A stretch of 64,000 nt of DNA from the sequence record PX645697.1; one strand, written 5' to 3'. Made by a program: the position numbers and the translations under genes. Positions 7,002 through 53,642 of the stretch are shown one piece after another. How positions within the stretch are numbered: position 1 is the first letter of the stretch; each line of letters starts with the position of its first letter. The DNA comes from a phage. The notes below the pieces were generated by a model that saw only the letters and a list, made by a program, of their open reading frames with translations, did not search any database and was not told the DNA's origin.

Positions 7002-8036
7002 ATGGCATATGGAATATGGACAAGCCCGGTCGGTCCGGGTCCAGCGGCACCTGCTGACATTTACATTGACAGTGGTAGCACTTTCCCTCAACTCAGAAAT
7101 AGAGTCAGTGGGAATTTCTCTTTTAGCGGAAATACCTGTGACTTGCCTATAAGCGGTTGGGATGGTAGCGGTCAGATAGTTGTAGTCCCAACAGGGTCTG
7201 TTGTTTGGGAGAGATACATACCTCCTAATGTAACATCTGATGTGTATTGGCTAACGGATATATCTGTTATTAATAACTCAACCTTCAGAGTTACTATGGA
7301 CTATAACGTAAACGGTTGGGTATTTGATATGGCTTTTAATGTATATCAAATATGGCCTAGAGCTAATAGGAACTATGGAATCACATTCTCCAACTCTGCT
7401 GACTATTTCTCAATCTCTGATTCTGGAGTTGTTGGTCAATGTATTTGGGCTTGGGAAGGTGACATAAATGGCTCTCTTCAAATACCAGATATTGGAGGTT
7501 TTGATATGAGTCGAGCAACTGTCTATGCAAATTGGAGTAACGGCGGAGCAGGGCTACTATACAACCCATCTAATAGGGTTGTTTATGTGTACCAGAACAG
7601 ATCTCATGATAATGGTAACACAAATCAAACAGGGTACATTGGTGGTGTTAGGATTGCCGTATTCTGTGATGGTTCGGGAGTACCAACCCACAATGGAGGT
7701 TTAAATATCTTTTCTCCAAATGGGTCTCAGTGTGTTTTTTCTACATATAGAACCCCTTTTAGTGTTGAGGGATTTATGCCTATGAGTGGTGGTAACACAT
7801 CTTTGGCCTATCCAATGATACCTCTATCTTATGGTGCTGGAGCAATAAGAGGTAAGGCTAGTGGTTGGTATTTTCAACACACAAGATCTCACATGATGAA
7901 TGGCTCTTCTTTTGGTACAGGTTTCGGAAGGATGATTTACTCTTGGAGTAGTCAATATGATTTAGGAGGGGGTGGTGCCCTCGGGTTAAGTATTCCAATA
8001 TTAGATGCTAGAAAGATATTCAGGAGTATACAATAA
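7002..8036 (+). CDS. hypothetical structural protein
   Basis: Track ORF, tightly packed in structural operon; Gly/Ser/Asn-rich. Confidence 0.4.
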   Translation: MAYGIWTSPVGPGPAAPADIYIDSGSTFPQLRNRVSGNFSFSGNTCDLPISGWDGSGQIVVVPTGSVVWERYIPPNVTSDVYWLTDISVINNSTFRVTMDYNVNGWVFDMAFNVYQIWPRANRNYGITFSNSADYFSISDSGVVGQCIWAWEGDINGSLQIPDIGGFDMSRATVYANWSNGGAGLLYNPSNRVVYVYQNRSHDNGNTNQTGYIGGVRIAVFCDGSGVPTHNGGLNIFSPNGSQCVFSTYRTPFSVEGFMPMSGGNTSLAYPMIPLSYGAGAIRGKASGWYFQHTRSHMMNGSSFGTGFGRMIYSWSSQYDLGGGGALGLSIPILDARKIFRSIQ

Positions 8037-18195: not shown

Positions 18196-19017
18196 TTATT
18201 CCCAAGATTTATTTAACCACGACCAATCAAATAGGTCTTCCGGAGTCTGGCCAACAAAGAGCAGCCGAGCATTCTCAAGCATCTTCTCTTCATCTTCAGT
18301 ATCGAACTTCTTATAATATTCCATTCGTACTATATGATACATGGTCCACTTATCTGTAACATCAGCCAATAGTTTAGCTGCTGCTTTCTTCCCTATTCCT
18401 TGACGTCGAAGCTGGAGCTTACCACCCCACATAACTTCTTTACGTTCTCCACATCCGGGGATATTATCTGTACCATCTCCAATCAACATTTGATAGAAGA
18501 AGTTTTGCCATGAAACTAAATCAGATACGTAGTGAGGAGGAACCTCTTTCTGTCTTTCTCCACAAGCCCAACGGTAATGCCATCCGGGCGTTATCAACAA
18601 ATCTTTGTCTCTAGTACAGATAATAGTGTTCTTATCCCTACGTTGCCTTTCAGCTAGTGCATCGTCAGCCTCTCTCCCAAATACGTCTATGTATTCATAC
18701 TTGGCTTTAATGTAATCACCAACGTTTTGCCAGTGAAAAGGTCTTTCTCCGGGAGGTCTATTTGCTTTGTAATCTTGCTGCTTAGCAACATCGAAACGGA
18801 AGTTACCACCTTCGCTGAAGTAGAATACAACCTTACTGCAACCTGAGCGAGCAATGATAGTATCTATCTTGTACTGAAGTCGTTCAATCATGAAATTGTA
18901 ATCAACTGGAACACGTCCTGTGTCAAGAAAGGGATGCTCCTGAGTAAGAGCACCCACTTCATATCGAAGAACGTCAGCATCCACTATAGCTACTTCAGGG
19001 AGCTTAACGTCTTCCAT
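18196..19017 (-). CDS. 5'-3' exonuclease, FEN / T7 gp6-like
   Basis: YKANRPPGERP ... ICTRDKDLL ... IGDGTDNIPG pattern of flap-endonuclease-family phage exonucleases. Confidence 0.6.
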   Translation of the reverse strand: MEDVKLPEVAIVDADVLRYEVGALTQEHPFLDTGRVPVDYNFMIERLQYKIDTIIARSGCSKVVFYFSEGGNFRFDVAKQQDYKANRPPGERPFHWQNVGDYIKAKYEYIDVFGREADDALAERQRRDKNTIICTRDKDLLITPGWHYRWACGERQKEVPPHYVSDLVSWQNFFYQMLIGDGTDNIPGCGERKEVMWGGKLQLRRQGIGKKAAAKLLADVTDKWTMYHIVRMEYYKKFDTEDEEKMLENARLLFVGQTPEDLFDWSWLNKSWE

Positions 19018-22400: not shown

Positions 22401-22409
22401 TATACATTA
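22401..22409 (-). promoter_or_regulatory. TAATGTATA motif (minus strand) upstream of SSB-like gene
   Basis: Exact 9-mer 59 nt upstream of ATG 22341; part of a palindromic TATGTATA-G-TATACATA arrangement. Confidence 0.35.
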
Positions 22410-25149: not shown

Positions 25150-25341
25150 TCACTCTACCAACGCAGGCACTTCTATCCTTTTAACTGTGAATGTCTTGTT
25201 TGGAAACTTTCGAACTAACTCTGCTGCTTTGGTTATTGCTAAGTTCTCTGTCTCAAAGATACACAGTTGACCATTTAATGCTACAAGAGTGGAGCCACCA
25301 CTGAAGATGGCCCAAGATTCATAATAACCTTTAACACTCAT
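25150..25341 (-). CDS. hypothetical protein
   Basis: Track ORF. Confidence 0.35.
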   Translation of the reverse strand: MSVKGYYESWAIFSGGSTLVALNGQLCIFETENLAITKAAELVRKFPNKTFTVKRIEVPALVE

Positions 25342-25349
25342 AATCTACC

Positions 25350-27194
25350 TTAGTGCGTATGCATCCAGTTGAGTCCAATCTGGCAATCAGAAGCCAGAGG
25401 ACATTCCATGTTCAAATACTCACCAGCTTTCTTAACACAAAGCTCGGTGTGTTCTTTGAGTTTCTGTACATCGTTACGGTTCACTGAGAACTGGCCCTCG
25501 TCGTGCATGTCAATTACTTTAGCACAACGAACTCCATCTTTCTCAATCCATTTGTTAAGGAACATCATAGCATATTTCATAACAACAGCACCAGCACATT
25601 GCAGGAGAGTGTTAAGGGCTTTATGAACCATAACCTTTCCAGTGGCATCCCGTCTCATTGTAATCTTACGACCATCAACTCCAATCAAGTATCCTTGAGC
25701 AGCCTTCTCTGTCATACGATCAATGAGGATTGCAATACATGGGTTCTCTGCCAAGAATCGTGCTCGCATCACTGAACCTTCGTCAGCCCCACCACCTACA
25801 ATCGAACCAAGCTTAGCATCACCAGCACCATAGTTGAATGCGTAGATAAACGTCTTAGCGTTGTCACGAGTAGGAAGACCAGCAAGTTTCTGGTTATGGG
25901 AGTGGATATCACCTTCAAGAAGAATATCACGATACATAATAGCAGAAGCTAAACCACGTTCTGCCAGAGCTTTCTTAGCTGGATTATTCTCTTCGATTGC
26001 TTCAGCAAGCATATCCCTACATTCTTTAATGAGGTAGTGTGCAAGCATACGCAACTCTAATCCAGAACCATCATACCCTAAGAATACTTCTTTACCAGCG
26101 GGTATGTAATATTTGTAAGCACCTACAGGTTTGTCTTTCTTCCCCGGCTTACCTTTCTCATAAATTACGTTAGTACCTTTTCGTATATAACAACCATCAG
26201 GAACAACGTTAGTAATAACGAAAGGACGAGAGTGATCAACATCTGAGTTATAGTCAGACTCAAACAAACCGCGACACTCATGACCAAACAAACCACGGGA
26301 GGGAATATTAACCACGATACGATGTTTGAATCGAAAAGTCGGCGTAGCGCAGCTGTTAGCTTCTGCCGAAAGTTTACCATCTTCGCGTTCCTTTGCTATG
26401 AGTCCACTGATAAGACCTAGCCTGTGAGCCGCTACAACGCGTCTCTTAAGCAAACTCCCGACACTCCCTAGCTCACCCCCTAACCCTTCTTCAAGAGTCT
26501 CCTCGAGGTTTGTAGGAGCTGTAGGCCACTTGTTTGAGGTAGCTAGTGCTATCTTAATCTCATCAAAAGTGATAGGTCTACGTCGGTTAGGGTTTAAACC
26601 TAAACCAAATACATAAGCCTTCATATAGTTCTTAGTCTTAAACCTAAAATGCTTCTCTAAGAACTTCCTAATATCAGCGTCAACCATCTCGGCTGTCTGC
26701 TTCTGTTTAGCATTACCTCGCATCCAAGCTGAATACCATGCTTGGTATGTTCCATACTTTCGCATATCTTTCTTGATTTCAAAAGTATTCCAAGGCTTCT
26801 TAGATACGTTAAACTCTGGAGGAAGAAAGCCCTCATCCATAAGGGCTTCTTTAACTCGTGCATCTTTCGATGGGTCAAAGTCCACGTATTCAACACAGGT
26901 GAATGCTCCACCAATGTCTTCTCTCTTAAGACCAACTCTATCACAATAGGCTTGAGGCCACTTCTGTAAAGCTCCAGACTTCTTAAATGGCTTCATATAA
27001 GTAGAGCCATCTAATCTCATCTTAGGTAAGAGAGGAATCAGTTCTTTGTCAATATTAACAATAATCTCTTTAAGGAGGTGAACATACCACCGAGCATTTC
27101 TTCGGTTGAAACTCACTCCGTGCTTCGCTTGCTTAGAGATTATATCAGCGACAGTCATCTCTGTCAAAAATGGGAGAGCGTCCGGGTTGCTCAC
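25350..27194 (-). CDS. DNA polymerase, family A, polymerase domain only
   Basis: Motif A GYDGSGLELRMLAHY, motif B RDNAKTFIYAFNYGAGDAKLG, motif C VIDMHDEGQF; no DEDD exonuclease motifs in N-terminal part. Confidence 0.8.
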   Translation of the reverse strand: MSNPDALPFLTEMTVADIISKQAKHGVSFNRRNARWYVHLLKEIIVNIDKELIPLLPKMRLDGSTYMKPFKKSGALQKWPQAYCDRVGLKREDIGGAFTCVEYVDFDPSKDARVKEALMDEGFLPPEFNVSKKPWNTFEIKKDMRKYGTYQAWYSAWMRGNAKQKQTAEMVDADIRKFLEKHFRFKTKNYMKAYVFGLGLNPNRRRPITFDEIKIALATSNKWPTAPTNLEETLEEGLGGELGSVGSLLKRRVVAAHRLGLISGLIAKEREDGKLSAEANSCATPTFRFKHRIVVNIPSRGLFGHECRGLFESDYNSDVDHSRPFVITNVVPDGCYIRKGTNVIYEKGKPGKKDKPVGAYKYYIPAGKEVFLGYDGSGLELRMLAHYLIKECRDMLAEAIEENNPAKKALAERGLASAIMYRDILLEGDIHSHNQKLAGLPTRDNAKTFIYAFNYGAGDAKLGSIVGGGADEGSVMRARFLAENPCIAILIDRMTEKAAQGYLIGVDGRKITMRRDATGKVMVHKALNTLLQCAGAVVMKYAMMFLNKWIEKDGVRCAKVIDMHDEGQFSVNRNDVQKLKEHTELCVKKAGEYLNMECPLASDCQIGLNWMHTH

Positions 27195-27636: not shown

Positions 27637-27921
27637 TTAACCTTTTGGGAATGGCATTAAAGATTCCATAGCAGTCTTAATTTCACTATTGATTCGTGAA
27701 TCACGGTAAGAGATAAACTTACCTTTGCTGTCACGTAACATCACATGGGTTCTGGATGTTTTGTGAGGGAGCAATGTGATACTGGTTGGGATAGTGTCAA
27801 CCCCTGCAAGATATGTGTCAATAGTCTTGCTTTCAGTCAACAGATAAGACCAAGTACGCGGTTTCTGCTCCGGGCGGTTGGGGTATGTGTCTCGAATCTG
27901 AACCATAGCTAACTTATTCAT
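27637..27921 (-). CDS. hypothetical protein, paralog of 27923..28174
   Basis: Shared C-terminal ...GKFISY...FPKG pattern. Confidence 0.4.
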   Translation of the reverse strand: MNKLAMVQIRDTYPNRPEQKPRTWSYLLTESKTIDTYLAGVDTIPTSITLLPHKTSRTHVMLRDSKGKFISYRDSRINSEIKTAMESLMPFPKG

Positions 27922-27922
27922 A

Positions 27923-28174
27923 TTAAACTCCTTTAGGGAATGGGATGAGGTTTTCTACTGCAACACGGAATTCTTTCTCTACATCTTTATTCTTGTAGGA
28001 AATGAACTTCCCATCAGCACCACGGAGGATTACGTTAGTACGAGCTGTTTTTGGATTATGACTAATCTGGTTTGCAATAATATTAGCAATGCCGTGGTTA
28101 TTGGTAAATTTCCATTTAACCATACGATTGTTAGACATTACATCAATGATATTTACAGATTTTACAATAGACAT
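27923..28174 (-). CDS. hypothetical protein, paralog of 27637..27921
   Basis: Shared C-terminal ...GKFISY...NLIPFPKG pattern. Confidence 0.4.
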   Translation of the reverse strand: MSIVKSVNIIDVMSNNRMVKWKFTNNHGIANIIANQISHNPKTARTNVILRGADGKFISYKNKDVEKEFRVAVENLIPFPKGV

Positions 28175-28602: not shown

Positions 28603-28611
28603 TATACATTA
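28603..28611 (-). promoter_or_regulatory. TAATGTATA motif (minus strand)
   Basis: Exact 9-mer 36 nt upstream of ATG 28566. Confidence 0.35.
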
Positions 28612-28809: not shown

Positions 28810-28987
28810 TCCACCCTCCCGGTGGTACAAAATCATCAGGAACATCAATGATAGTAGGTTCTCCATCATTCATGCAGGTGTCTTCATTGAACTCTTCACA
28901 CTCAAAGCACGCTCGTTCGATATTTTTGTAGAAGTCGATGGTTGCTGAACCATCACCACAATCTCGGATAACTAGAGCTACTTTCAC
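28802..28987 (-). CDS. hypothetical Cys-containing acidic protein
   Basis: Track ORF. Confidence 0.3.
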   Translation of the reverse strand: MKVALVIRDCGDGSATIDFYKNIERACFECEEFNEDTCMNDGEPTIIDVPDDFVPPGGWSE

Positions 28988-29727
28988 TTCTCTTGTCCTT
29001 TTTCCATTGCTTTAACAATAGCTTTACAGAAACCAGAACGAACAATGTCATCTGATTCGCCATCTACTATCTCAGCGAACTCATACAGATCATGTTCATC
29101 AATAAAGTTAGTAGCCCAAGTAAGACCACTCTCACGACCACGCATATCATGCTGGTTAGTATCACCCATGCAGAACAGCTGAGAGGTCTCTCCCAATCGA
29201 GTCATGATTGAGAAGGCTTCATCTTTAGTGGTGTTCTGGAACTCATCTACGATAACAATAGCATCGTTGAAAGAACGACCACGGAGATACTCCAGAGGTA
29301 CGAACTCAATATTACTGTTACCGAGCTGGCATTCATAGAACCCTTTACCATATCGCTGAGTAATAACATCAATGATAGGCATCAAATATGGTTCAAACTT
29401 CTCACGCATCCCTCCCGGAAGCAACCCAAGAGAATTACCCATGCCGACCGAAGGGCGACTCAGGATAATCTTCTGAATCTTACCACTCTTCAGTGCATCG
29501 ATAACCGTGGAAGTGATTACAAAGGTCTTACCACAGCCCGCAGGAGCGTCTGTGAACACAACTTGTTTAGTCTTAATAGCATTGAGTAGCTCAGACTGAA
29601 ACTGGTTCTGAGGGACTACAGGCTTTGCTAAAACCACCTCTTCATACTCTCGCTTACCTTTACGAGTAACAAGTGCTTCCCGACGAAGGTCTTTCCGTGA
29701 TTCTTTCCGTGATTGACGACGACTCAT
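28984..29727 (-). CDS. phoH: PhoH-like ATPase
   Basis: Walker A DAPAGCGKTF and Walker B VIVDEFQN in PhoH-type arrangement. Confidence 0.7.
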   Translation of the reverse strand: MSRRQSRKESRKDLRREALVTRKGKREYEEVVLAKPVVPQNQFQSELLNAIKTKQVVFTDAPAGCGKTFVITSTVIDALKSGKIQKIILSRPSVGMGNSLGLLPGGMREKFEPYLMPIIDVITQRYGKGFYECQLGNSNIEFVPLEYLRGRSFNDAIVIVDEFQNTTKDEAFSIMTRLGETSQLFCMGDTNQHDMRGRESGLTWATNFIDEHDLYEFAEIVDGESDDIVRSGFCKAIVKAMEKGQEK

Positions 29728-29921: not shown

Positions 29922-30106
29922 TCAGTAAGAGACCACAGAGAGTCACCTATGTGGGCATTGTCATTCCTGATGAGGTCTTTGATTTTATCAACATCAGTCA
30001 AGTGAGTCACATTCAAAATATCCTCAACATCCGGGGCATATTTAAATATGGCAACAATACTGTTGCGATCTTCAGCGTATCTTTCTAGAACATAAACTAC
30101 GCTCAT
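29906..30106 (-). CDS. hypothetical protein
   Basis: Track ORF. Confidence 0.35.
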   Translation of the reverse strand: MSVVYVLERYAEDRNSIVAIFKYAPDVEDILNVTHLTDVDKIKDLIRNDNAHIGDSLWSLTEWTLW

Positions 30107-30426
30107 GCGAAGTTAACCTCTTTATGAAGTCTGTAAACAGCCGTCGCCATACAAGCAACAGCTTCGTTATGTGGGAGATGCATCCCTGTAGAACCATCCC
30201 AATCTTTGAACTCATTGTCAAAGACTCCGGTAGGCTCTGGATACAAGGCTTGCAACTCAACCAAATCGTTAGCAACTTGTTGCCATTTATCATCAGACCA
30301 GATAGGGTCATCCAACCAGTAATACAAATAGGAATGGATGATCAATTGCCTTCTATGCCGATTGATTACTTCAGCGGGACTTATCTCACTTCCGTTTGAA
30401 GTCCTAAATGTATTACCGTCGATCAT
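30103..30426 (-). CDS. hypothetical protein
   Basis: Track ORF. Confidence 0.35.
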   Translation of the reverse strand: MIDGNTFRTSNGSEISPAEVINRHRRQLIIHSYLYYWLDDPIWSDDKWQQVANDLVELQALYPEPTGVFDNEFKDWDGSTGMHLPHNEAVACMATAVYRLHKEVNFA

Positions 30427-31171: not shown

Positions 31172-31855
31172 TTAACTCTCCAAAGTTTTCTTCAGAGCTG
31201 CCCACGAGATTGGGTAGATCTTAGCCATCTCTTCGTCTACGGATTTAGCAAACACTCGAACTTCATATTGAGCGTGAGATGAGAGTCGCTGACGACACAG
31301 CTCAAACCAGCCATACAAAGAACCAGTCCACACCCACTCAGTGATCATCCCCTGAGGAAGAACAAATCGAGCTTGCTCTGGTGCAATAAATTCAATCAAC
31401 TTGTCATATGCTGCTAGAGAATCTTCATATGCATCGTTAATCAGCATTAATGCTTCATCTCGCTCTCCGTCGATGAGTTGAATCCCTGAACCTGCATGGA
31501 GGTCCGCAGGTCTCGCAAAAATCTCTTTAGGGATGAAGACTTCAACTGCTCCATCTTTATACCGCCGGGACATTTCGTTCCACGAGAATCCAACCTGATG
31601 CTTGCCCAACTGTCTCGCAATTGCGATAGGTGCTTTGCATCGGAAACTGACTTGTGGGTGTCGGAATGGAGTAACATGCTTCTCTCTTGCGAGGAAATTG
31701 ATGAGACGTTCATCACGTTCATTTAAATCACCTTCACGGGTTACACCAAAGGAAACTCGAGCTGCGTTTACTACAGTTTTATCCGAGCCTAAAAACTCTA
31801 CCAGTTCTGCTTTAAGCTGATCATTCATTACTTTTTCTCTCCATCCATGAAGCAA
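31172..31855 (-). CDS. thyX: flavin-dependent thymidylate synthase (ThyX)
   Basis: ThyX-type motif ARVSFG...FRHPQVSF...QRLSSHAQYEVR. Confidence 0.7.
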   Translation of the reverse strand: MLHGWREKVMNDQLKAELVEFLGSDKTVVNAARVSFGVTREGDLNERDERLINFLAREKHVTPFRHPQVSFRCKAPIAIARQLGKHQVGFSWNEMSRRYKDGAVEVFIPKEIFARPADLHAGSGIQLIDGERDEALMLINDAYEDSLAAYDKLIEFIAPEQARFVLPQGMITEWVWTGSLYGWFELCRQRLSSHAQYEVRVFAKSVDEEMAKIYPISWAALKKTLES

Positions 31856-32273
31856 GTTTTCTAACTTCCTCTATCGTTATATCACTTTTTAACCTATTTA
31901 CTCTTCTTGACAAAAAGGTCACATTCCCTTGAACGTACCCTTTGTCTGGAATAAATCTGTCAAGCTCAGCTAAGTCATCAGAACCTTTTTCACCATCTAT
32001 CTTTATAGGCGTATCTAATACCGGACAGAATCCAGTCCAAATAGACTCTAGATACTCAGGAGTTAAATCAAAAGGTACGTTATCCCTTTTTGCTTTTATT
32101 TTAGTTCTGACATTCTTTAATTTAAAAGGTTGTGTCCTTTTATATTTTAGATATCTAGCTCTTTGACTTTCGTTGGCGCAAGAATAACAATAAGGCCGTA
32201 ACCTACCAGACCTATCATTACGCACAGGAAATTGATCTATGTCCAAATCCTTTTCACAGGAATTACAGATCAT
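31821..32273 (-). CDS. zinc-finger protein, possibly degenerate HNH-like nuclease
   Basis: N-terminal CNSC...CYSC; C-terminal IPDKGYVQGNVTFLSRRVNRLK. Confidence 0.3.
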   Translation of the reverse strand: MICNSCEKDLDIDQFPVRNDRSGRLRPYCYSCANESQRARYLKYKRTQPFKLKNVRTKIKAKRDNVPFDLTPEYLESIWTGFCPVLDTPIKIDGEKGSDDLAELDRFIPDKGYVQGNVTFLSRRVNRLKSDITIEEVRKLASWMERKSNE

Positions 32274-32338: not shown

Positions 32339-32539
32339 TTAATATTCTTTTACACAATAAACCACTAAGGTTCCTTGATCTGTTAATATTGACTTATGTA
32401 AGCTGACATTACTATAAAACTTTGGAGCTATCTTAAGGGCTTTCTTAAAACGACGAGCTTCTTTACGAGTAGCAAAGTGCTCTGTTACAGGAACTTTGTC
32501 GTTGTGTAGATAGTAAACTACTGTCCAATATTTTTTCAT
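32339..32539 (-). CDS. small protein, member of KEARR-KK paralog family
   Basis: MKKYW...TRKEARRFKK shared with four ORFs at 34.4-35.5 kb. Confidence 0.4.
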   Translation of the reverse strand: MKKYWTVVYYLHNDKVPVTEHFATRKEARRFKKALKIAPKFYSNVSLHKSILTDQGTLVVYCVKEY

Positions 32540-32814
32540 AATTTAATACCCAAAGCAGTTACTAAGAAAGCTTTCAGGTTTGCTTCGGTCTGCATACCAG
32601 ATAAGCTATAATGTGCATCGCTGTTACGATTAGGCACAACGAAAGCAGGGATACTTCGTACACCATACTTAACAGCTTGTTCACGACCATCACCTTCAAG
32701 GATGTTAATCTCTTCTACTTCTACATCAAACTCCTTAACAACCTTCTCAAAGGTAGGAGCCATTGCTTTACATGGAGCACACTGATCACTATAAAACTTA
32801 ATTACTTTACTCAT
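32536..32814 (-). CDS. thioredoxin/glutaredoxin-like protein
   Basis: CAPC active-site motif in thioredoxin-fold context (KFYSDQCAPCKAMAP...IPAFVV); start trimmed to ATG 32814. Confidence 0.55.
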   Translation of the reverse strand: MSKVIKFYSDQCAPCKAMAPTFEKVVKEFDVEVEEINILEGDGREQAVKYGVRSIPAFVVPNRNSDAHYSLSGMQTEANLKAFLVTALGIKL

Positions 32815-33440: not shown

Positions 33441-34040
33441 TTAGTAAGACACATCACCACTTGAGTGGGACATGTTGCTCTTGACAAAGTAGCAATACTT
33501 GCCAAGACCTTCATTAATTTCTTGAAGCATACTCTGATCAACTGGATAAGTGACTAAATCACCATCAAACTCATCCATCTTCTCAATAATACACAACAAG
33601 GTCATGCACATATCAGAGAGCATTCCATCCATGTCTAGATCAGCATTACCCTCTGAGAACCAAGCATGAGAGAGGTAGTTAGCTGCTGTAGCGTCCACTT
33701 TAACACAGTGGTAACGCATACGTTCAGCAATACGATCTCCTACCTGTCGTGCGTAATCTTCCAGCTCGTCAAACATACCATGAACACCCTGAAATCCTGC
33801 ACCAGAGACGTTCCAGTGGTAGTTTTTAGCTTTAATATGCAAGAGTTCCATGTTAGCTTGTAAGCAGCTTAGGATGTGTTCTAGGTTGTTTCCGCTAATC
33901 ATGCCCTGCATAGTTTCAAGGCGAGAGATTGAAAGCTCAGATCGGTCTAACATGTTATATTCTGCACGACCGATTTCAGGTAAATCAAAGACATTCTTAT
34001 GCATTTGGGTTATCTCCATCAAGTTCAACTGAATTAGCAA
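33441..34040 (-). CDS. Dps-like / ferritin-like protein
   Basis: KNYHWNVSGAGFQGVHGMFDE...DRIAERMRY matches the Dps ferroxidase-region pattern HWN..G..F..VH.M.D....AER. Confidence 0.5.
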   Translation of the reverse strand: MLIQLNLMEITQMHKNVFDLPEIGRAEYNMLDRSELSISRLETMQGMISGNNLEHILSCLQANMELLHIKAKNYHWNVSGAGFQGVHGMFDELEDYARQVGDRIAERMRYHCVKVDATAANYLSHAWFSEGNADLDMDGMLSDMCMTLLCIIEKMDEFDGDLVTYPVDQSMLQEINEGLGKYCYFVKSNMSHSSGDVSY

Positions 34041-34364: not shown

Positions 34365-34373
34365 ATATACATT
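34365..34373 (-). promoter_or_regulatory. AAATGTATA variant of the recurrent motif
   Basis: One mismatch to TAATGTATA, 35-40 nt upstream of ATG 34326. Confidence 0.3.
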
Positions 34374-34398
34374 TGAGAGTGATCATATCTACTACCAA

Positions 34399-34608
34399 TC
34401 AGTAGTAAATTACTTTAGACATAAAAGAACCAGTGTTAGGGTCTTCATACCAGCGATGTATGTCAGCGCTTTTTACTATTGTGCCCAGAGTCTTCAACTG
34501 TTTCTTAGCAATACGAGCCTCTTTGCGAGTGTCAAACAATTTGATGCTATCTTTTCTCATATGTTGCTCAAGATCCCAAACAACATGAATAGCCCACATC
34601 TTTTTCAT
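34399..34608 (-). CDS. small protein, KEARR-KK paralog family
   Basis: MKKMW...TRKEARIAKK...VIYY. Confidence 0.45.
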   Translation of the reverse strand: MKKMWAIHVVWDLEQHMRKDSIKLFDTRKEARIAKKQLKTLGTIVKSADIHRWYEDPNTGSFMSKVIYY

Positions 34609-34823
34609 TAGTAATGTACCTTTCCGCTGATATAAATACGGCCTGAGGTATACTCATAGCCCTTGAGAATCTTAATAGAGATAAGATATCCAGTGTGTAA
34701 TTCACTGAACGATTTCTTAAGCCTACGTGCATCTTCTCGTGTTTTCTGGTAGGCCATGGTCACCCCCCCACTTGTCCACTCTGTCTTAACTAACCAAATT
34801 CTTTTCATAAGACCTGCCCTCAT
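34608..34823 (-). CDS. small protein, KEARR-KK paralog family
   Basis: ...TREDARRLKK...KVHY. Confidence 0.45.
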   Translation of the reverse strand: MRAGLMKRIWLVKTEWTSGGVTMAYQKTREDARRLKKSFSELHTGYLISIKILKGYEYTSGRIYISGKVHY

Positions 34824-35035
34824 TAGTAGTACACCTTGCTTCCAGCCATGAACGCCCCTGTCGAGCTTATCATGGCTTTGCTGATAGTAACTTTCTTACA
34901 CCGTAAACATACCTTCCAGTTCTTTTTACAGATTCGAGCTTCTTGTCGAGTGTTACAAAAAATAGCCGAAGATATTTCTTGGGTGTTGTTATCATAAACA
35001 CGAACACACCACTTTTTCATTGTTCCAAACTCCAC
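34823..35035 (-). CDS. small protein, KEARR-KK paralog family
   Basis: ...TRQEARICKK...KVYY. Confidence 0.45.
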   Translation of the reverse strand: MEFGTMKKWCVRVYDNNTQEISSAIFCNTRQEARICKKNWKVCLRCKKVTISKAMISSTGAFMAGSKVYY

Positions 35036-35226
35036 TATCTGTCAACCGATTCAGGGACAAACTGCATTACACAGACCTGATTACGAGGAAGGTTTATTTC
35101 ACAAGCGGTTTTTCTATCAGCAACCTTAGATGACGAGTTAGGGCCAATTTGAGCCATCATTAATCCCATAGCTAACATGCCGAGGATTACACCAATTGCT
35201 AGAGATGCTACAGTTTCTTGTTTCAT
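35035..35226 (-). CDS. small membrane protein
   Basis: Hydrophobic segment ASLAIGVILGMLAMGLMMAQI. Confidence 0.35.
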   Translation of the reverse strand: MKQETVASLAIGVILGMLAMGLMMAQIGPNSSSKVADRKTACEINLPRNQVCVMQFVPESVDR

Positions 35227-35241
35227 ATCGGATACACTCTA

Positions 35242-35490
35242 TCAGTAATATATCTTTTCATTGATAACCAAAGTGTCGTAATTCTCTGTCTGAGAGTGGA
35301 CCGCTTTGTGAATAGTAGCTACTACATCAACAGCATCTTTAAAGCGTCGATAATGGTTTATGGTTACTTTTTTGAGACGTCTAGCCTCCTCTCTTGAGGG
35401 AAGCTGAGTTTTTAGAACAGTGATTTTACCTGTTGAAATCTTGGTAATCACAACTTTCAGTGCCCAACAATCCAGAGCAGCCTTTTTCAT
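35242..35490 (-). CDS. small protein, KEARR-KK paralog family
   Basis: ...SREEARRLKK...KIYY. Confidence 0.45.
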   Translation of the reverse strand: MKKAALDCWALKVVITKISTGKITVLKTQLPSREEARRLKKVTINHYRRFKDAVDVVATIHKAVHSQTENYDTLVINEKIYY

Positions 35491-35693: not shown

Positions 35694-36227
35694 TTACACA
35701 CCTTTAGATGCAACTACACCTTCAGAGTTATTATAACGACCCTTCACTGCATAGGAATGTTCCCCTGCATGAGAGTGCTCAAACATCACCATCTGACCAA
35801 CACGCATACCAGCACGAACTCGTAAGCTATGATGCTTGGTTACGTTATGGAACTCAAATGTCAGCTTACTGCTGTTAAACCCTGCGTCTGCCCACCCGGC
35901 GTGGAGGTGGTTCAAACCACAACGAGCCATAGATGAACGTAGGACAAACAGACTTGAGATGTTATCTGGAAGATTAAACTCCTCCATGGAGTGAGCCAAG
36001 AAGAACTGACCCGGAGTGATAACCAAACCCTCTTCAGGAATCTTTACTTCCTTCCACTGAAGATTCTCTTTCGCATCAATATCAACGATGCCATCAGCCT
36101 GTTCTTCAACAAGGATAGTATCACCAATACGGATATCCACACTAGCAGCGTTAACATATTTATGCTCCGCATTCAGATAGCCATTGTCAATTACATCGTG
36201 CAGTTCAATACTTCCTAGTAAACTCAT
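35694..36227 (-). CDS. dcd: dCTP deaminase / dUTPase-family protein
   Basis: VDIRIGD...PGQFFLAHSMEEFNLPDN...LRSSMARCGL...AGWADAGF pattern of Dcd family. Confidence 0.65.
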   Translation of the reverse strand: MSLLGSIELHDVIDNGYLNAEHKYVNAASVDIRIGDTILVEEQADGIVDIDAKENLQWKEVKIPEEGLVITPGQFFLAHSMEEFNLPDNISSLFVLRSSMARCGLNHLHAGWADAGFNSSKLTFEFHNVTKHHSLRVRAGMRVGQMVMFEHSHAGEHSYAVKGRYNNSEGVVASKGV

Positions 36228-36236
36228 TCTTATTCC

Positions 36237-37583
36237 TTAGTTATTTGTTTCTACGTCAAAAGAGATTCCACGACCCGCCTCATCGGCAAACCGAACTGTA
36301 CGGGTTTGAGGTTCTAATATTTCAGGGTTGTCAGCAACAAAGCGATCAGCGAGATTCTGGTTGACGGTCTCAGCAAGCTCCTCATGAGAAGGAACATCAA
36401 GACTACCTACCACATCTTGGGAAGAAGCTTCATCAGTCCAGATAACCCGAGCAGGAACAGCAAAACCCTGACCAGAGAGCTGACGTGCACTAACGTTGAA
36501 GCCATTTGGACGACCACGAGAAGGACTAGACATCCATCTCTCCATAGAATCACTTGTGATACCAAGAGCTTCTTCAAAAGATGTTCTACGAGTAGGGCTT
36601 TCTCTTCGTGACTCTTGTGCTCGACGCATTGCAGGGGCTACAAACACCCCTTCAATTGCATTGTGTCGGTTAGGTTCCTCTTCTCGACCAAGCAGATCAC
36701 CACCCGTGTTAGTCGTTAAATTTGTCAACCCCTCAGACCAATACGCATGAATCTGACCAGAACCGTGAAGACTAGACATAATCTGAATCTCTTCATAAGG
36801 GATTCCAAAGAATAGACTCATGTCTCGGTTAACACAATACTGAGCACTTGTTGTATCTTCAATAAGAGAAACCTGACCTAATCCATTAACCAGATGGCTA
36901 ACTGGCTGAGGTGTAGGAAGGTATCGAGTTTGGGCCATATATTGATATGCAACAGATGGAGCTGAGAATCTTAACACTTGTGAATTAGGCCACTTTTTGT
37001 GAACGTATCTGATTTCACGACTAGAAACAACCACAGGACAAGGAGAGGTCATAGCTAAATATCCATGAGGGGTCATGAATAAGTTATCAAGAGTCATCGC
37101 ACCACGGCACATCATAGGAAAATTATCCAACACCTCCTCAATAGAAGTAGGATAGTTAAACATGAATTGAATGCGGGTTCCATTCCACTGAAATTCAATA
37201 ATATCAGTGAATGTTAATTGAGAGTTCCCAGCATAGGATTCGTTTGTAGATTCAGCAAGAAGAGATGAATATTCAATATCTTGTGACTCAAGCCACTCCT
37301 TAACGTTGCTTTCAACCTCTCTTCCAAGATCTTGCCACTGATCATGGCGGACGAAAGTGTTTTGGGTTCTTGGTGTTTGTCCTCTGACAATAAAGATATC
37401 AATGTCATGTGGAGCTATATTGTTAAGGACAGCATCACGAATAGCCCCACCAGTAATGATGGGACAGATACCGTCTGGAATCAAGTTGTTGTTAATCAAC
37501 TGTTCAATGAAGTGACGACCAACAGTGATATCAGGTTGTTGAGCAACCTTATCTTCAATTTGGTTAATCGGGATAACAATCAT
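36237..37583 (-). CDS. Pol-beta-superfamily nucleotidyltransferase (CCA-adding / poly(A)-polymerase-like head) with low-complexity C-terminus
   Basis: ITGGAIRDAVLNNIAPHDIDIFIV matches the GG-x-RD...DxD head motif; start set at ATG 37583 just after exonuclease stop. Confidence 0.4.
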   Translation of the reverse strand: MIVIPINQIEDKVAQQPDITVGRHFIEQLINNNLIPDGICPIITGGAIRDAVLNNIAPHDIDIFIVRGQTPRTQNTFVRHDQWQDLGREVESNVKEWLESQDIEYSSLLAESTNESYAGNSQLTFTDIIEFQWNGTRIQFMFNYPTSIEEVLDNFPMMCRGAMTLDNLFMTPHGYLAMTSPCPVVVSSREIRYVHKKWPNSQVLRFSAPSVAYQYMAQTRYLPTPQPVSHLVNGLGQVSLIEDTTSAQYCVNRDMSLFFGIPYEEIQIMSSLHGSGQIHAYWSEGLTNLTTNTGGDLLGREEEPNRHNAIEGVFVAPAMRRAQESRRESPTRRTSFEEALGITSDSMERWMSSPSRGRPNGFNVSARQLSGQGFAVPARVIWTDEASSQDVVGSLDVPSHEELAETVNQNLADRFVADNPEILEPQTRTVRFADEAGRGISFDVETNN

Positions 37584-37584
37584 T

Positions 37585-38142
37585 TTACATTTTCCAATAT
37601 AATGAAGGTGGGTCGTAAGGGTCAAATCCCGTGAGTTCACACAAGAAAAGATAAACCTTAACAGTTAAGTTAACGTCCTGTTCACAATAAGTAAACATAT
37701 CTTCAGTGAAAGCATCCCATGCTTCCTCTTGCTCACCGTAATCTCCTTTAAGTTCCTCTAAGAACTCACCCCATTGCTTCAAGCCGTGACCTCTTGGGCC
37801 ACGTCTAGGGTCGCCTTTCGGATACTCAGGACTGTCACCAATACGGTCAGGTTTAAGATATCGACTAAGACAGAGAGTGTCAAAGACGTTAAAACGATAG
37901 TTGATCAGATTGGGATACATCTTCTTCAGAGCACAAAGGTCGAAGTCAATAATATTATGACCTACGAGCACATCAGCTTCTGTAAGTTTACGAATCCCAT
38001 CTTCAATTTGGTGAGGCCGATAGCCCCACCTTTCACCAGTTTCAACATCGAAGATGTAAATACACCATACTTTAGTTATGTCATCGTACAGTGCATTACT
38101 CTCGATATCGAATGCAAATACTTTCTTCTTTTTCTTTACCAC
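37585..38142 (-). CDS. DEDD-type 3'-5' exonuclease (DnaQ-like), stand-alone
   Basis: Exo [11 protein letters not shown], Exo [13 protein letters not shown], Exo III FTYCEQD. Confidence 0.6.
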
Positions 38143-53543: not shown

Positions 53544-53642
53544 CTCTCATTCAATTTGGCGCACCGTGGAGGATTCTAACCTCCAACCAATTTCTTAGAA
53601 GGAAACTGCTCTATACAATTGAGCTAACGGCGCTGGATTTGT

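Follow-up and report, generated by a model that had tools for sequence, protein, structure and literature searches.

The DNA polymerase of phage T7, gp5, is a single chain of 704 amino acids (aa) which holds both an exonuclease and a polymerase domain and which uses the thioredoxin of its host. In other phages the two halves of such an enzyme are encoded by separate genes, and here we describe a pair of this kind in a 64,000-nucleotide stretch of phage DNA (sequence record PX645697.1; "the window" below means this whole stretch). The pair consists of a polymerase gene (pol) at 25350..27194 and an exonuclease gene (exo) at 37585..38142. It should be noted that the exo/pol split is already known, having been annotated since 2008 and published, and that this window does not add a new case of it.

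The GenBank record of phage phiEco32 (2008) carries for phi32_53 the note 'lacks 5'-3' and 3'-5' exonuclease domains' and describes phi32_74 as "type I DNA polymerase; contains 3'-5' exonuclease domain". The orthologue of the latter in phage 172-1 is named "DNA polymerase exonuclease subunit" in RefSeq. A 2023 survey of Kuravirus found the polymerase and separately encoded 5'-3' and 3'-5' exonuclease subunits to be shared by every member of the group, and the same was found for 7-11, Privateer, Vp_R1 and BUCT695 (PMC9965538). In LUZ24/PaP3-type phages (Bruynoghevirus) the genes are likewise separate, and are annotated as 'DNA polymerase part I / part II' or as an exonuclease subunit and a polymerase; the LUZ24-type organisation has been compared explicitly with that of phiEco32 (PMC3517423). 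The separation is stated in papers from 2012 and 2023, for the Kuravirus group and for LUZ24-like phages.

An independent and recent fission of a T7-like PolA at the exo/pol boundary has been described in S-SBP1-like cyanophages, where the two genes overlap and the fission arose by a frameshift of 1 nucleotide (nt) (Czernecki et al. 2023, Nucleic Acids Research; PMC10201439). The non-covalent exo-pol complex predicted there with AlphaFold2 superposes on a fused homologue, and the authors draw a comparison with the DP1/DP2 enzyme. Polymerase and DEDD-type proofreading activities are likewise found on separate, assembling polypeptides in Escherichia coli Pol III (alpha, DnaE; epsilon, DnaQ) and in family D (DP1/DP2), but these enzymes belong to families C and D, not A, and their polymerase subunits have no homology to the one described here. 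The likeness to the alpha and epsilon subunits of Pol III is a functional analogy.

Polymerase and exonuclease genes of the window

A first-pass annotation of the window had described a polymerase open reading frame (ORF) in which motifs A, B and C were present but exonuclease motifs were absent, together with a stand-alone exonuclease about 10 kb away beside a primase-helicase, and had proposed a split rather than a fused T7-type polymerase. Sequence, profile and fold evidence bear out this description and indicate that one T7-type polymerase is encoded as separate pol and exo genes. The genes concerned are as follows:

25350..27194, minus strand: family A DNA polymerase of T7 type, 614 aa, with thumb, palm and fingers only (Pfam, PHROG, phmmer and fold)
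37585..38142, minus strand: stand-alone DEDDy 3'-5' proofreading exonuclease, 185 aa (Pfam, PHROG and T7 gp5 match)
38136..39926, minus strand: T7 gp4-type primase-helicase, 596 aa (Pfam DnaB_C and a weak Toprim_2; PHROG 239 'DNA primase/helicase', expectation value (E) 1e-175)

From its sequence, the product of 25350..27194 is assigned as a T7-type family A polymerase. The ORF starts with GTG, with an AAGGAG ribosome-binding site 5' of the start. The sole Pfam family found in the protein was DNA_pol_A (residues 361-611, E = 7e-23), and a Pfam scan at E ≤ 0.01 found no exonuclease family in it, neither 3'-5' nor 5'-3'. We aligned exo followed by pol to T7 gp5 and the Klenow fragment using MAFFT, which located all three polymerase motifs: motif A is DGSGLELR, with D375 aligned to T7 D475; motif B is RDNAKTFIYAFNYG, containing R443, K447 and Y451; and motif C is H564-D565-E566, aligned to VHDE of T7. 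Motif B has a tyrosine at the position equivalent to T7 Y526, and a tyrosine at position B3 of this motif has been described for the T7-like cluster (PMC10201439). The motif A, B and C residues, including D375, E380 and R382, were invariant in an alignment of 52 sequences. In phmmer the protein matched residues 289-704 of T7 gp5, the strongest block being 496-704 (E = 1.6e-32).

The 52-sequence alignment was also the input for an AlphaFold2 model of pol, which had a mean predicted local distance difference test score (pLDDT) of 91 and a predicted template-modelling score of 0.79. When this model was compared to the PDB with Foldseek, the top 27 matches were all T7 gp5 (E = 1.6e-25 to 8e-19, template-modelling scores of approximately 0.55-0.59), with Pol I and Bst polymerases ranking after them at approximately E = 1e-15. 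At its N-terminal end the modelled chain has two long helices. In the alignment pol begins at approximately T7 residue 205, in the thumb, and this, the Pfam null result and the AlphaFold2 model together rule out an exonuclease remnant hidden in the pol ORF.

Compared to T7, pol has three added ordered insertions, at approximately 135-265, at 328-369 (before motif A) and at approximately 388-420 (after motif A). The thumb insertion lies at the position of the thioredoxin-binding region of T7, is approximately 30 residues shorter than the T7 region in the alignment, and is modelled as an ordered beta/alpha element (pLDDT 86-91). A shortening of this region by approximately 30 residues is also a feature of the S-SBP1 polymerase.

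The 185-aa exo protein matched Pfam DNA_pol_A_exo1 (PF01612) over residues 4-167 with E = 4.5e-8 and 33.5 bits, above the curated cut-off of 23.6. It also matched phrog_38876 (E = 2e-78) and phrog_403 (E = 8e-38), both of which are named 'DNA polymerase exonuclease subunit', and was aligned to residues 3-178 of T7 gp5 with E = 4e-11. All three exonuclease motifs are present, in agreement with the first-pass annotation: Exo I is D12/E14 (D5/E7 in T7), Exo II is N63/D68 (D68 corresponding to T7 D65) and Exo III is Y152/D156, a YxxxD motif aligned to YNVQD of T7. The catalytic residues D12, E14, N63, D68, Y152 and D156 were invariant across 17 aligned sequences including T7, of which 15 were homologues of stand-alone size. 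The identities of pol and exo are not a chance pattern, because specific protein families were matched at very low E-values.

The two ORFs are separated by a gap of 10,390 bp, and the exo gene does lie beside the primase-helicase gene. Its GTG start (38142) overlaps the primase-helicase stop codon by 7 nt (GTGGTAA), with GGAG upstream, and its ORF ends one base short of the ATG of the next gene. The exo gene is apparently translationally coupled to the primase-helicase gene, which is directly upstream of it, as a gp4-type gene is in T7. The primase-helicase is the expected replisome partner.

Together, exo and pol are colinear with T7 gp5, with no segment duplicated or missing. The fused profile PHROG-17 is tiled by both proteins (exo at 667-826 and pol at 836-1233) and the two matches abut. 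The end of exo and the start of pol (MSNPDALPFLTEM…) fall at approximately T7 residues 195-205, which is the junction of the exonuclease and polymerase domains, so that exo corresponds to T7 gp5 residues 1 to approximately 200. The alignment to T7 gp5 and Klenow, which had been proposed as a check of the domain boundaries, therefore places the break at the exo/pol boundary. T7 gp5 is the best match by both sequence and fold and the catalytic residues of both halves are equivalent, but the single T7 chain is replaced here by two chains of 185 and 614 aa.

Source phage and split enzymes in other lineages

The pol and exo genes were 95-98% identical at the nucleotide level to those of phiEco32, NJ01, 172-1, IMEP8, EcoN5, SGF2, Paul and many others. 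According to the taxonomy of their records, the matching phages are Kuravirus (Gordonclarkvirinae) podophages that infect E. coli and Shigella, and the pol protein is listed as 100% identical to a protein cluster named for the polymerase of Shigella phage SGF2. On these matches we assign the source of the window to Kuravirus, as a phiEco32-like podophage. At least 80% of pol was covered in 94 records and at least 80% of exo in 75, and 42 had at least 80% of the 15-kb block from pol to the primase-helicase gene in one place. The best records for this block were 93-95% identical over 87-89% of its length, in 6-9 pieces. Since the block was matched only in pieces, the window is a mosaic variant and not a copy of a deposited genome.

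In phiEco32 (phi32_53 and phi32_74) and in the Kuravirus orthologues from NJ01, 172-1, SU10, YF01 and SGF2, the two ORFs have lengths identical to those found here (1845 and 558 nt), with the same order and orientation. The two genes themselves show no difference in these respects, whereas the 10-kb interval between them is mosaic against every deposited genome.

To place the split more widely, we considered homologues of both halves. In a collection of 5.8 billion proteins, 119 of the 120 best pol homologues had no precomputed PF01612 domain, the remaining one having both PF01612 and PF00476. Among the best 150 representatives (at 50% identity) from the exo search, 81 were at least 550 aa and fused, 36 were intermediate in length and 33 were no longer than 240 aa; this last number is an upper bound for stand-alone proteins because some short representatives are truncated. 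Three of these (P0020, P0042 and P0080) run into the start of the polymerase domain and are probably fused genes cut off at contig ends. The nearest neighbours of the window exo were mostly proteins of stand-alone size. The 799 aa of representative P0071 match the combined length of exo and pol by coincidence, since P0071 is a fused relative with only 22% identity in its polymerase part. Another protein, P0112, ends inside motif B, which fits a truncated protein.

The split replication module was followed in two other lineages:

Bruynoghevirus p2-10_Or1 (L005, 642-7778): ATP-grasp S6-glutaminyl-transferase, gamma-glutamyl cyclotransferase, a small gene, primase-helicase, exo, 1.7 kb, pol
unrelated 42-kb metagenomic contig: primase-helicase, an ORF of 135 aa, an exonuclease of 180 aa (38% identical), 4.6 kb, pol (43% identical)

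In the LUZ24/PaP3-type phages, exo is 34% and pol 39-41% identical to the window proteins; the gap between the genes is 1.7 kb compared to 10.4 kb here, and the polymerase belongs to a class of approximately 540 aa compared to 614 aa. Upstream of exo, phiEco32 and 172-1 are annotated with the same synteny as Bruynoghevirus. The synteny of the replication module is common to Kuravirus and Bruynoghevirus although their genomes are approximately 77 kb and 44 kb. This suggests that the module, with the exo/pol split included, either goes back to a shared ancestor or was exchanged as a whole. In all three lineages exo occupies the position expected for the beginning of T7 gene 5, close by the primase-helicase gene, and the distance to pol is 1.7, 4.6 or 10.4 kb.

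The genes described here differ from those of S-SBP1 in being 10 kb apart, neither adjacent nor overlapping, in sharing their split with several divergent lineages, and in that the two halves apparently belong to different temporal classes. As the genes are far apart, the window belongs with the phiEco32 type and not with the recent S-SBP1 fission.

In several close relatives the pol gene itself is broken by an insert that carries a homing endonuclease. In Bas94 (L009, 1501-4051) and Bas93 the annotated pol coding sequence (CDS) is joined across an 'endonuclease VII' ORF, and in PE006 (L008, 1497-3912) a homing endonuclease stands ahead of the last 51 codons of pol. The pol gene was matched in two pieces in LAMP and in pEC-N1203-2Af.1, in the latter across two polymerase CDSs and a hypothetical protein. 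Many pol homologues are N-terminal pieces of approximately 450 aa (approximately 72% query coverage) which end near motif B (443-456), examples being P0164 and the BUCT695 polymerase. Judged from these gene structures, pol would be encoded by some relatives in three parts if splicing does not remove the insert. The pol gene of the window is uninterrupted.

Possible assembly of the two halves

We consider it likely that the split halves of this T7 gp5-type enzyme reassociate as a two-subunit proofreading polymerase. The 185-aa exo and the 614-aa pol would come together non-covalently along the exo/pol interface of fused T7-type enzymes, and the resulting two-subunit enzyme would work with the gp4-like primase-helicase.

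A further component may be the thioredoxin which the phage itself encodes between exo and pol:

32536..32814, minus strand: phage thioredoxin with a CAPC active site (Pfam Thioredoxin, E = 1.8e-13)

Given how T7 gp5 uses host thioredoxin, we infer by analogy that this protein is a candidate processivity cofactor. T7 recruits the thioredoxin of its host, whereas this phage has its own. A hypothesis that a phage thioredoxin serves the polymerase has been put forward for the related phage Privateer (PMC7881722), and both thioredoxin and polymerase were detected by mass spectrometry in a preparation of SU10 precipitated with polyethylene glycol (PMC4281155).

Several points weigh against reassociation. 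We infer the activity of each half, and the binding of exo to pol from homology to the fused T7 gp5 and from the published S-SBP1 model. Our literature search found no biochemical study of any split polymerase from Kuravirus or LUZ24-type phages; the papers that it found on a DNA polymerase exonuclease subunit were all genome announcements or characterisations of phages, with no mechanistic study in any title or abstract. The timing of expression may also differ. In the SU10 paper, by homology to phiEco32, genes 69-125 are assigned as early and genes 25-68 as middle (PMC4281155), so that exo (gp74) and the primase-helicase (gp75) would be early and pol (gp53) middle, and the two halves may be made out of step. 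Candidates for the promoter motif of the phiEco32 gp36 sigma factor, tAATGTATAtA (PMC4281155), sit between exo and pol:

34366..34374, minus strand: gp36-sigma motif candidate, AAATGTATA, with one mismatch; intergenic, upstream of the phi32_68 homologue and between exo and pol
28603..28611, minus strand: second candidate phage-sigma promoter, an exact TAATGTATA on the coding strand, 1.4 kb upstream of pol

The position of these motifs, read with the literature, suggests that pol is under a middle promoter and that exo is upstream of that promoter. However, the end of the early genes had no detected terminator, and read-through into the middle genes is possible (PMC4281155). Since early transcription may read through in this way, the difference in timing between exo and pol is a lead and not a result.

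Across the whole window, the gp36-sigma motif with one mismatch allowed gave 22 matches compared to 21 expected, which is not an enrichment. The motif core TAATGTATA occurs in five exact copies, at 7337, 12571 and 22473 on the plus strand and at 22401 and 28603 on the minus strand. Two copies lie in the plus-strand block of structural genes and two on the minus strand in the block of replication genes. The pair at 22401 (minus) and 22473 (plus) faces outwards, resembling divergent promoters.

An unlikely alternative is that exo is not a stable subunit of pol but a proofreader acting in trans or in association with the helicase. It would be made early with the primase-helicase and would either travel with the helicase or work unattached on mismatched 3' ends, in the manner of Pol III epsilon, leaving pol itself without an exonuclease. 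The translational coupling of the exo start to the primase-helicase stop would fit such a role, as would the placing of these two genes in the early cluster and of pol in the middle one (by homology to phiEco32) and the fact that the exo-pol distance ranges from 1.7 to more than 10 kb across the three split lineages examined, yet exo is next to the primase-helicase in each. Nevertheless, T7 gene 5 follows gene 4, so that adjacency to the helicase gene is simply the ancestral position, and the lack of a detected terminator means that early transcription may reach the middle genes (PMC4281155). The exo protein is moreover a plain homologue of the N-terminal domain of T7 gp5, which packs on the polymerase domain, and in the published complex model of another split lineage the interface of the fused type is kept (PMC10201439). 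It is very unlikely that exo is a small exonuclease unrelated to replication fidelity, serving host DNA degradation or the processing of recombination ends, with pol having no proofreading. DEDD exonucleases are known in many roles, but this one is most closely related to N-terminal domains in fused T7-like polymerases, as the 81 fused proteins among the 150 best representatives illustrate; it co-occurs with an exonuclease-less polymerase in every lineage checked, and it is located in the replication module beside the primase-helicase.

We also considered whether the split could reflect an error in sequencing or assembly, the remnant of a pseudogene, programmed frameshifting or trans-splicing by a split intein. 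These options arose because cyanobacterial DnaE is rejoined by a split intein and because the S-SBP1 fission came about through a frameshift. Nothing was found in favour of any of these, and we give them practically no weight. The distance of 10.4 kb, with 20-26 genes between, and the intact state of both genes in dozens of independently sequenced phages rule out an artefact of assembly or frameshift; exo and pol also each have their own ribosome-binding site. A split intein is ruled out as well, as there are no unaccounted residues at the junction and no room for intein halves of 100 and 35 residues, and the Pfam scan of the exo and pol proteins found no intein family.

A bolder and, to our minds, improbable extension would be that the split is functional rather than neutral. 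Exo would be made early and coupled to the helicase, and pol later from phage-sigma middle promoters, so that the capacity for proofreading and the dosage of polymerase would be under separate control; alternatively, exo would bind to the helicase and proofread in trans in the manner of epsilon. The phage thioredoxin would then replace host TrxA as the clamp, and the stretch between exo and pol would be a conserved but expandable cargo slot.

Neighbouring genes and comparative value

The interval of approximately 10.4 kb between exo and pol holds genes for nucleotide metabolism and small genes, including many small ORFs; 20 genes are annotated between the two in phiEco32 and 26 in 172-1. Apart from the thioredoxin gene, the identified features of this interval, and two features elsewhere in the window, are:

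36237..37583, minus strand: nucleotidyltransferase, directly downstream of exo (PHROG 12715, E = 2e-247; weak Pfam PolyA_pol head domain, E = 0.002)
35694..36227: dCTP deaminase
33441..34040: Dps-like protein
31821..32273, minus strand: HNH/EndoVII-like ORF, 150 aa, between thyX and the thioredoxin gene (PHROG 3322 and 1035)
31172..31855: ThyX
30103..30426, minus strand: stand-alone Nlig-Ia domain, 107 aa, the NAD+-binding Ia domain of DNA ligase alone (Pfam Nlig-Ia, E = 3e-35)
28984..29727: PhoH
18196..19017, minus strand: FEN-like 5'-3' exonuclease, 273 aa (PHROG 107 'exonuclease', E = 3e-65; weak Pfam 5_3_exonuc_N, E = 1.7e-6, below the curated cut-off)
53557..53633, minus strand: tRNA-Arg with anticodon TCT, a single gene in a leftward-transcribed region

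For the nucleotidyltransferase, the start at 37583, as annotated in phiEco32, is more likely than the start of the longest ORF at 37640, which overlaps exo. The homologue in one relative is annotated as a class II CCA-adding enzyme's nucleotidyltransferase domain. The HNH/EndoVII-like ORF is absent from phiEco32, in which the thyX and thioredoxin genes directly adjoin, and it is probably the insertion of a free-standing homing endonuclease. Relatives of the protein from 30103..30426 are named 'NAD-dependent DNA ligase', but at this length it is much too short for a ligase. The predicted FEN-like exonuclease would be the third Pol I-type activity with a gene of its own.

Small ORFs of 66-82 aa at 34399..35490 and 32339..32539, all on the minus strand, are apparent paralogues which share the motif 'E/DAR+.KK' and mostly end in '…Y(Y)'; four of them are arranged nearly in tandem between the Dps-like and dCTP deaminase genes and one lies beside the thioredoxin gene. 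Close to pol, an ORF of 63 aa directly downstream (25150..25341, minus strand) matched Pfam T4_Y13H, a family of small T4 proteins (E = 2e-25). Shortly upstream of pol, the neighbouring ORFs 27637..27921 and 27923..28174 (94 and 83 aa, minus strand) are apparent tandem paralogues, both having '…GKFISY…' and the C-terminal '…L(M/I)PFPKG'.

Natural two-gene versions of this polymerase are of use for asking what keeps the exo/pol interface together when the halves are not covalently joined, and whether fidelity is tunable apart from synthesis, a question which has already been raised in the literature for this phage group. The comparative value of the window is modest: Kuravirus-like phages share the split with Bruynoghevirus and with one or more uncultured lineages, and in each of them the exo gene is tied to the primase-helicase gene, with a variable gap to pol.

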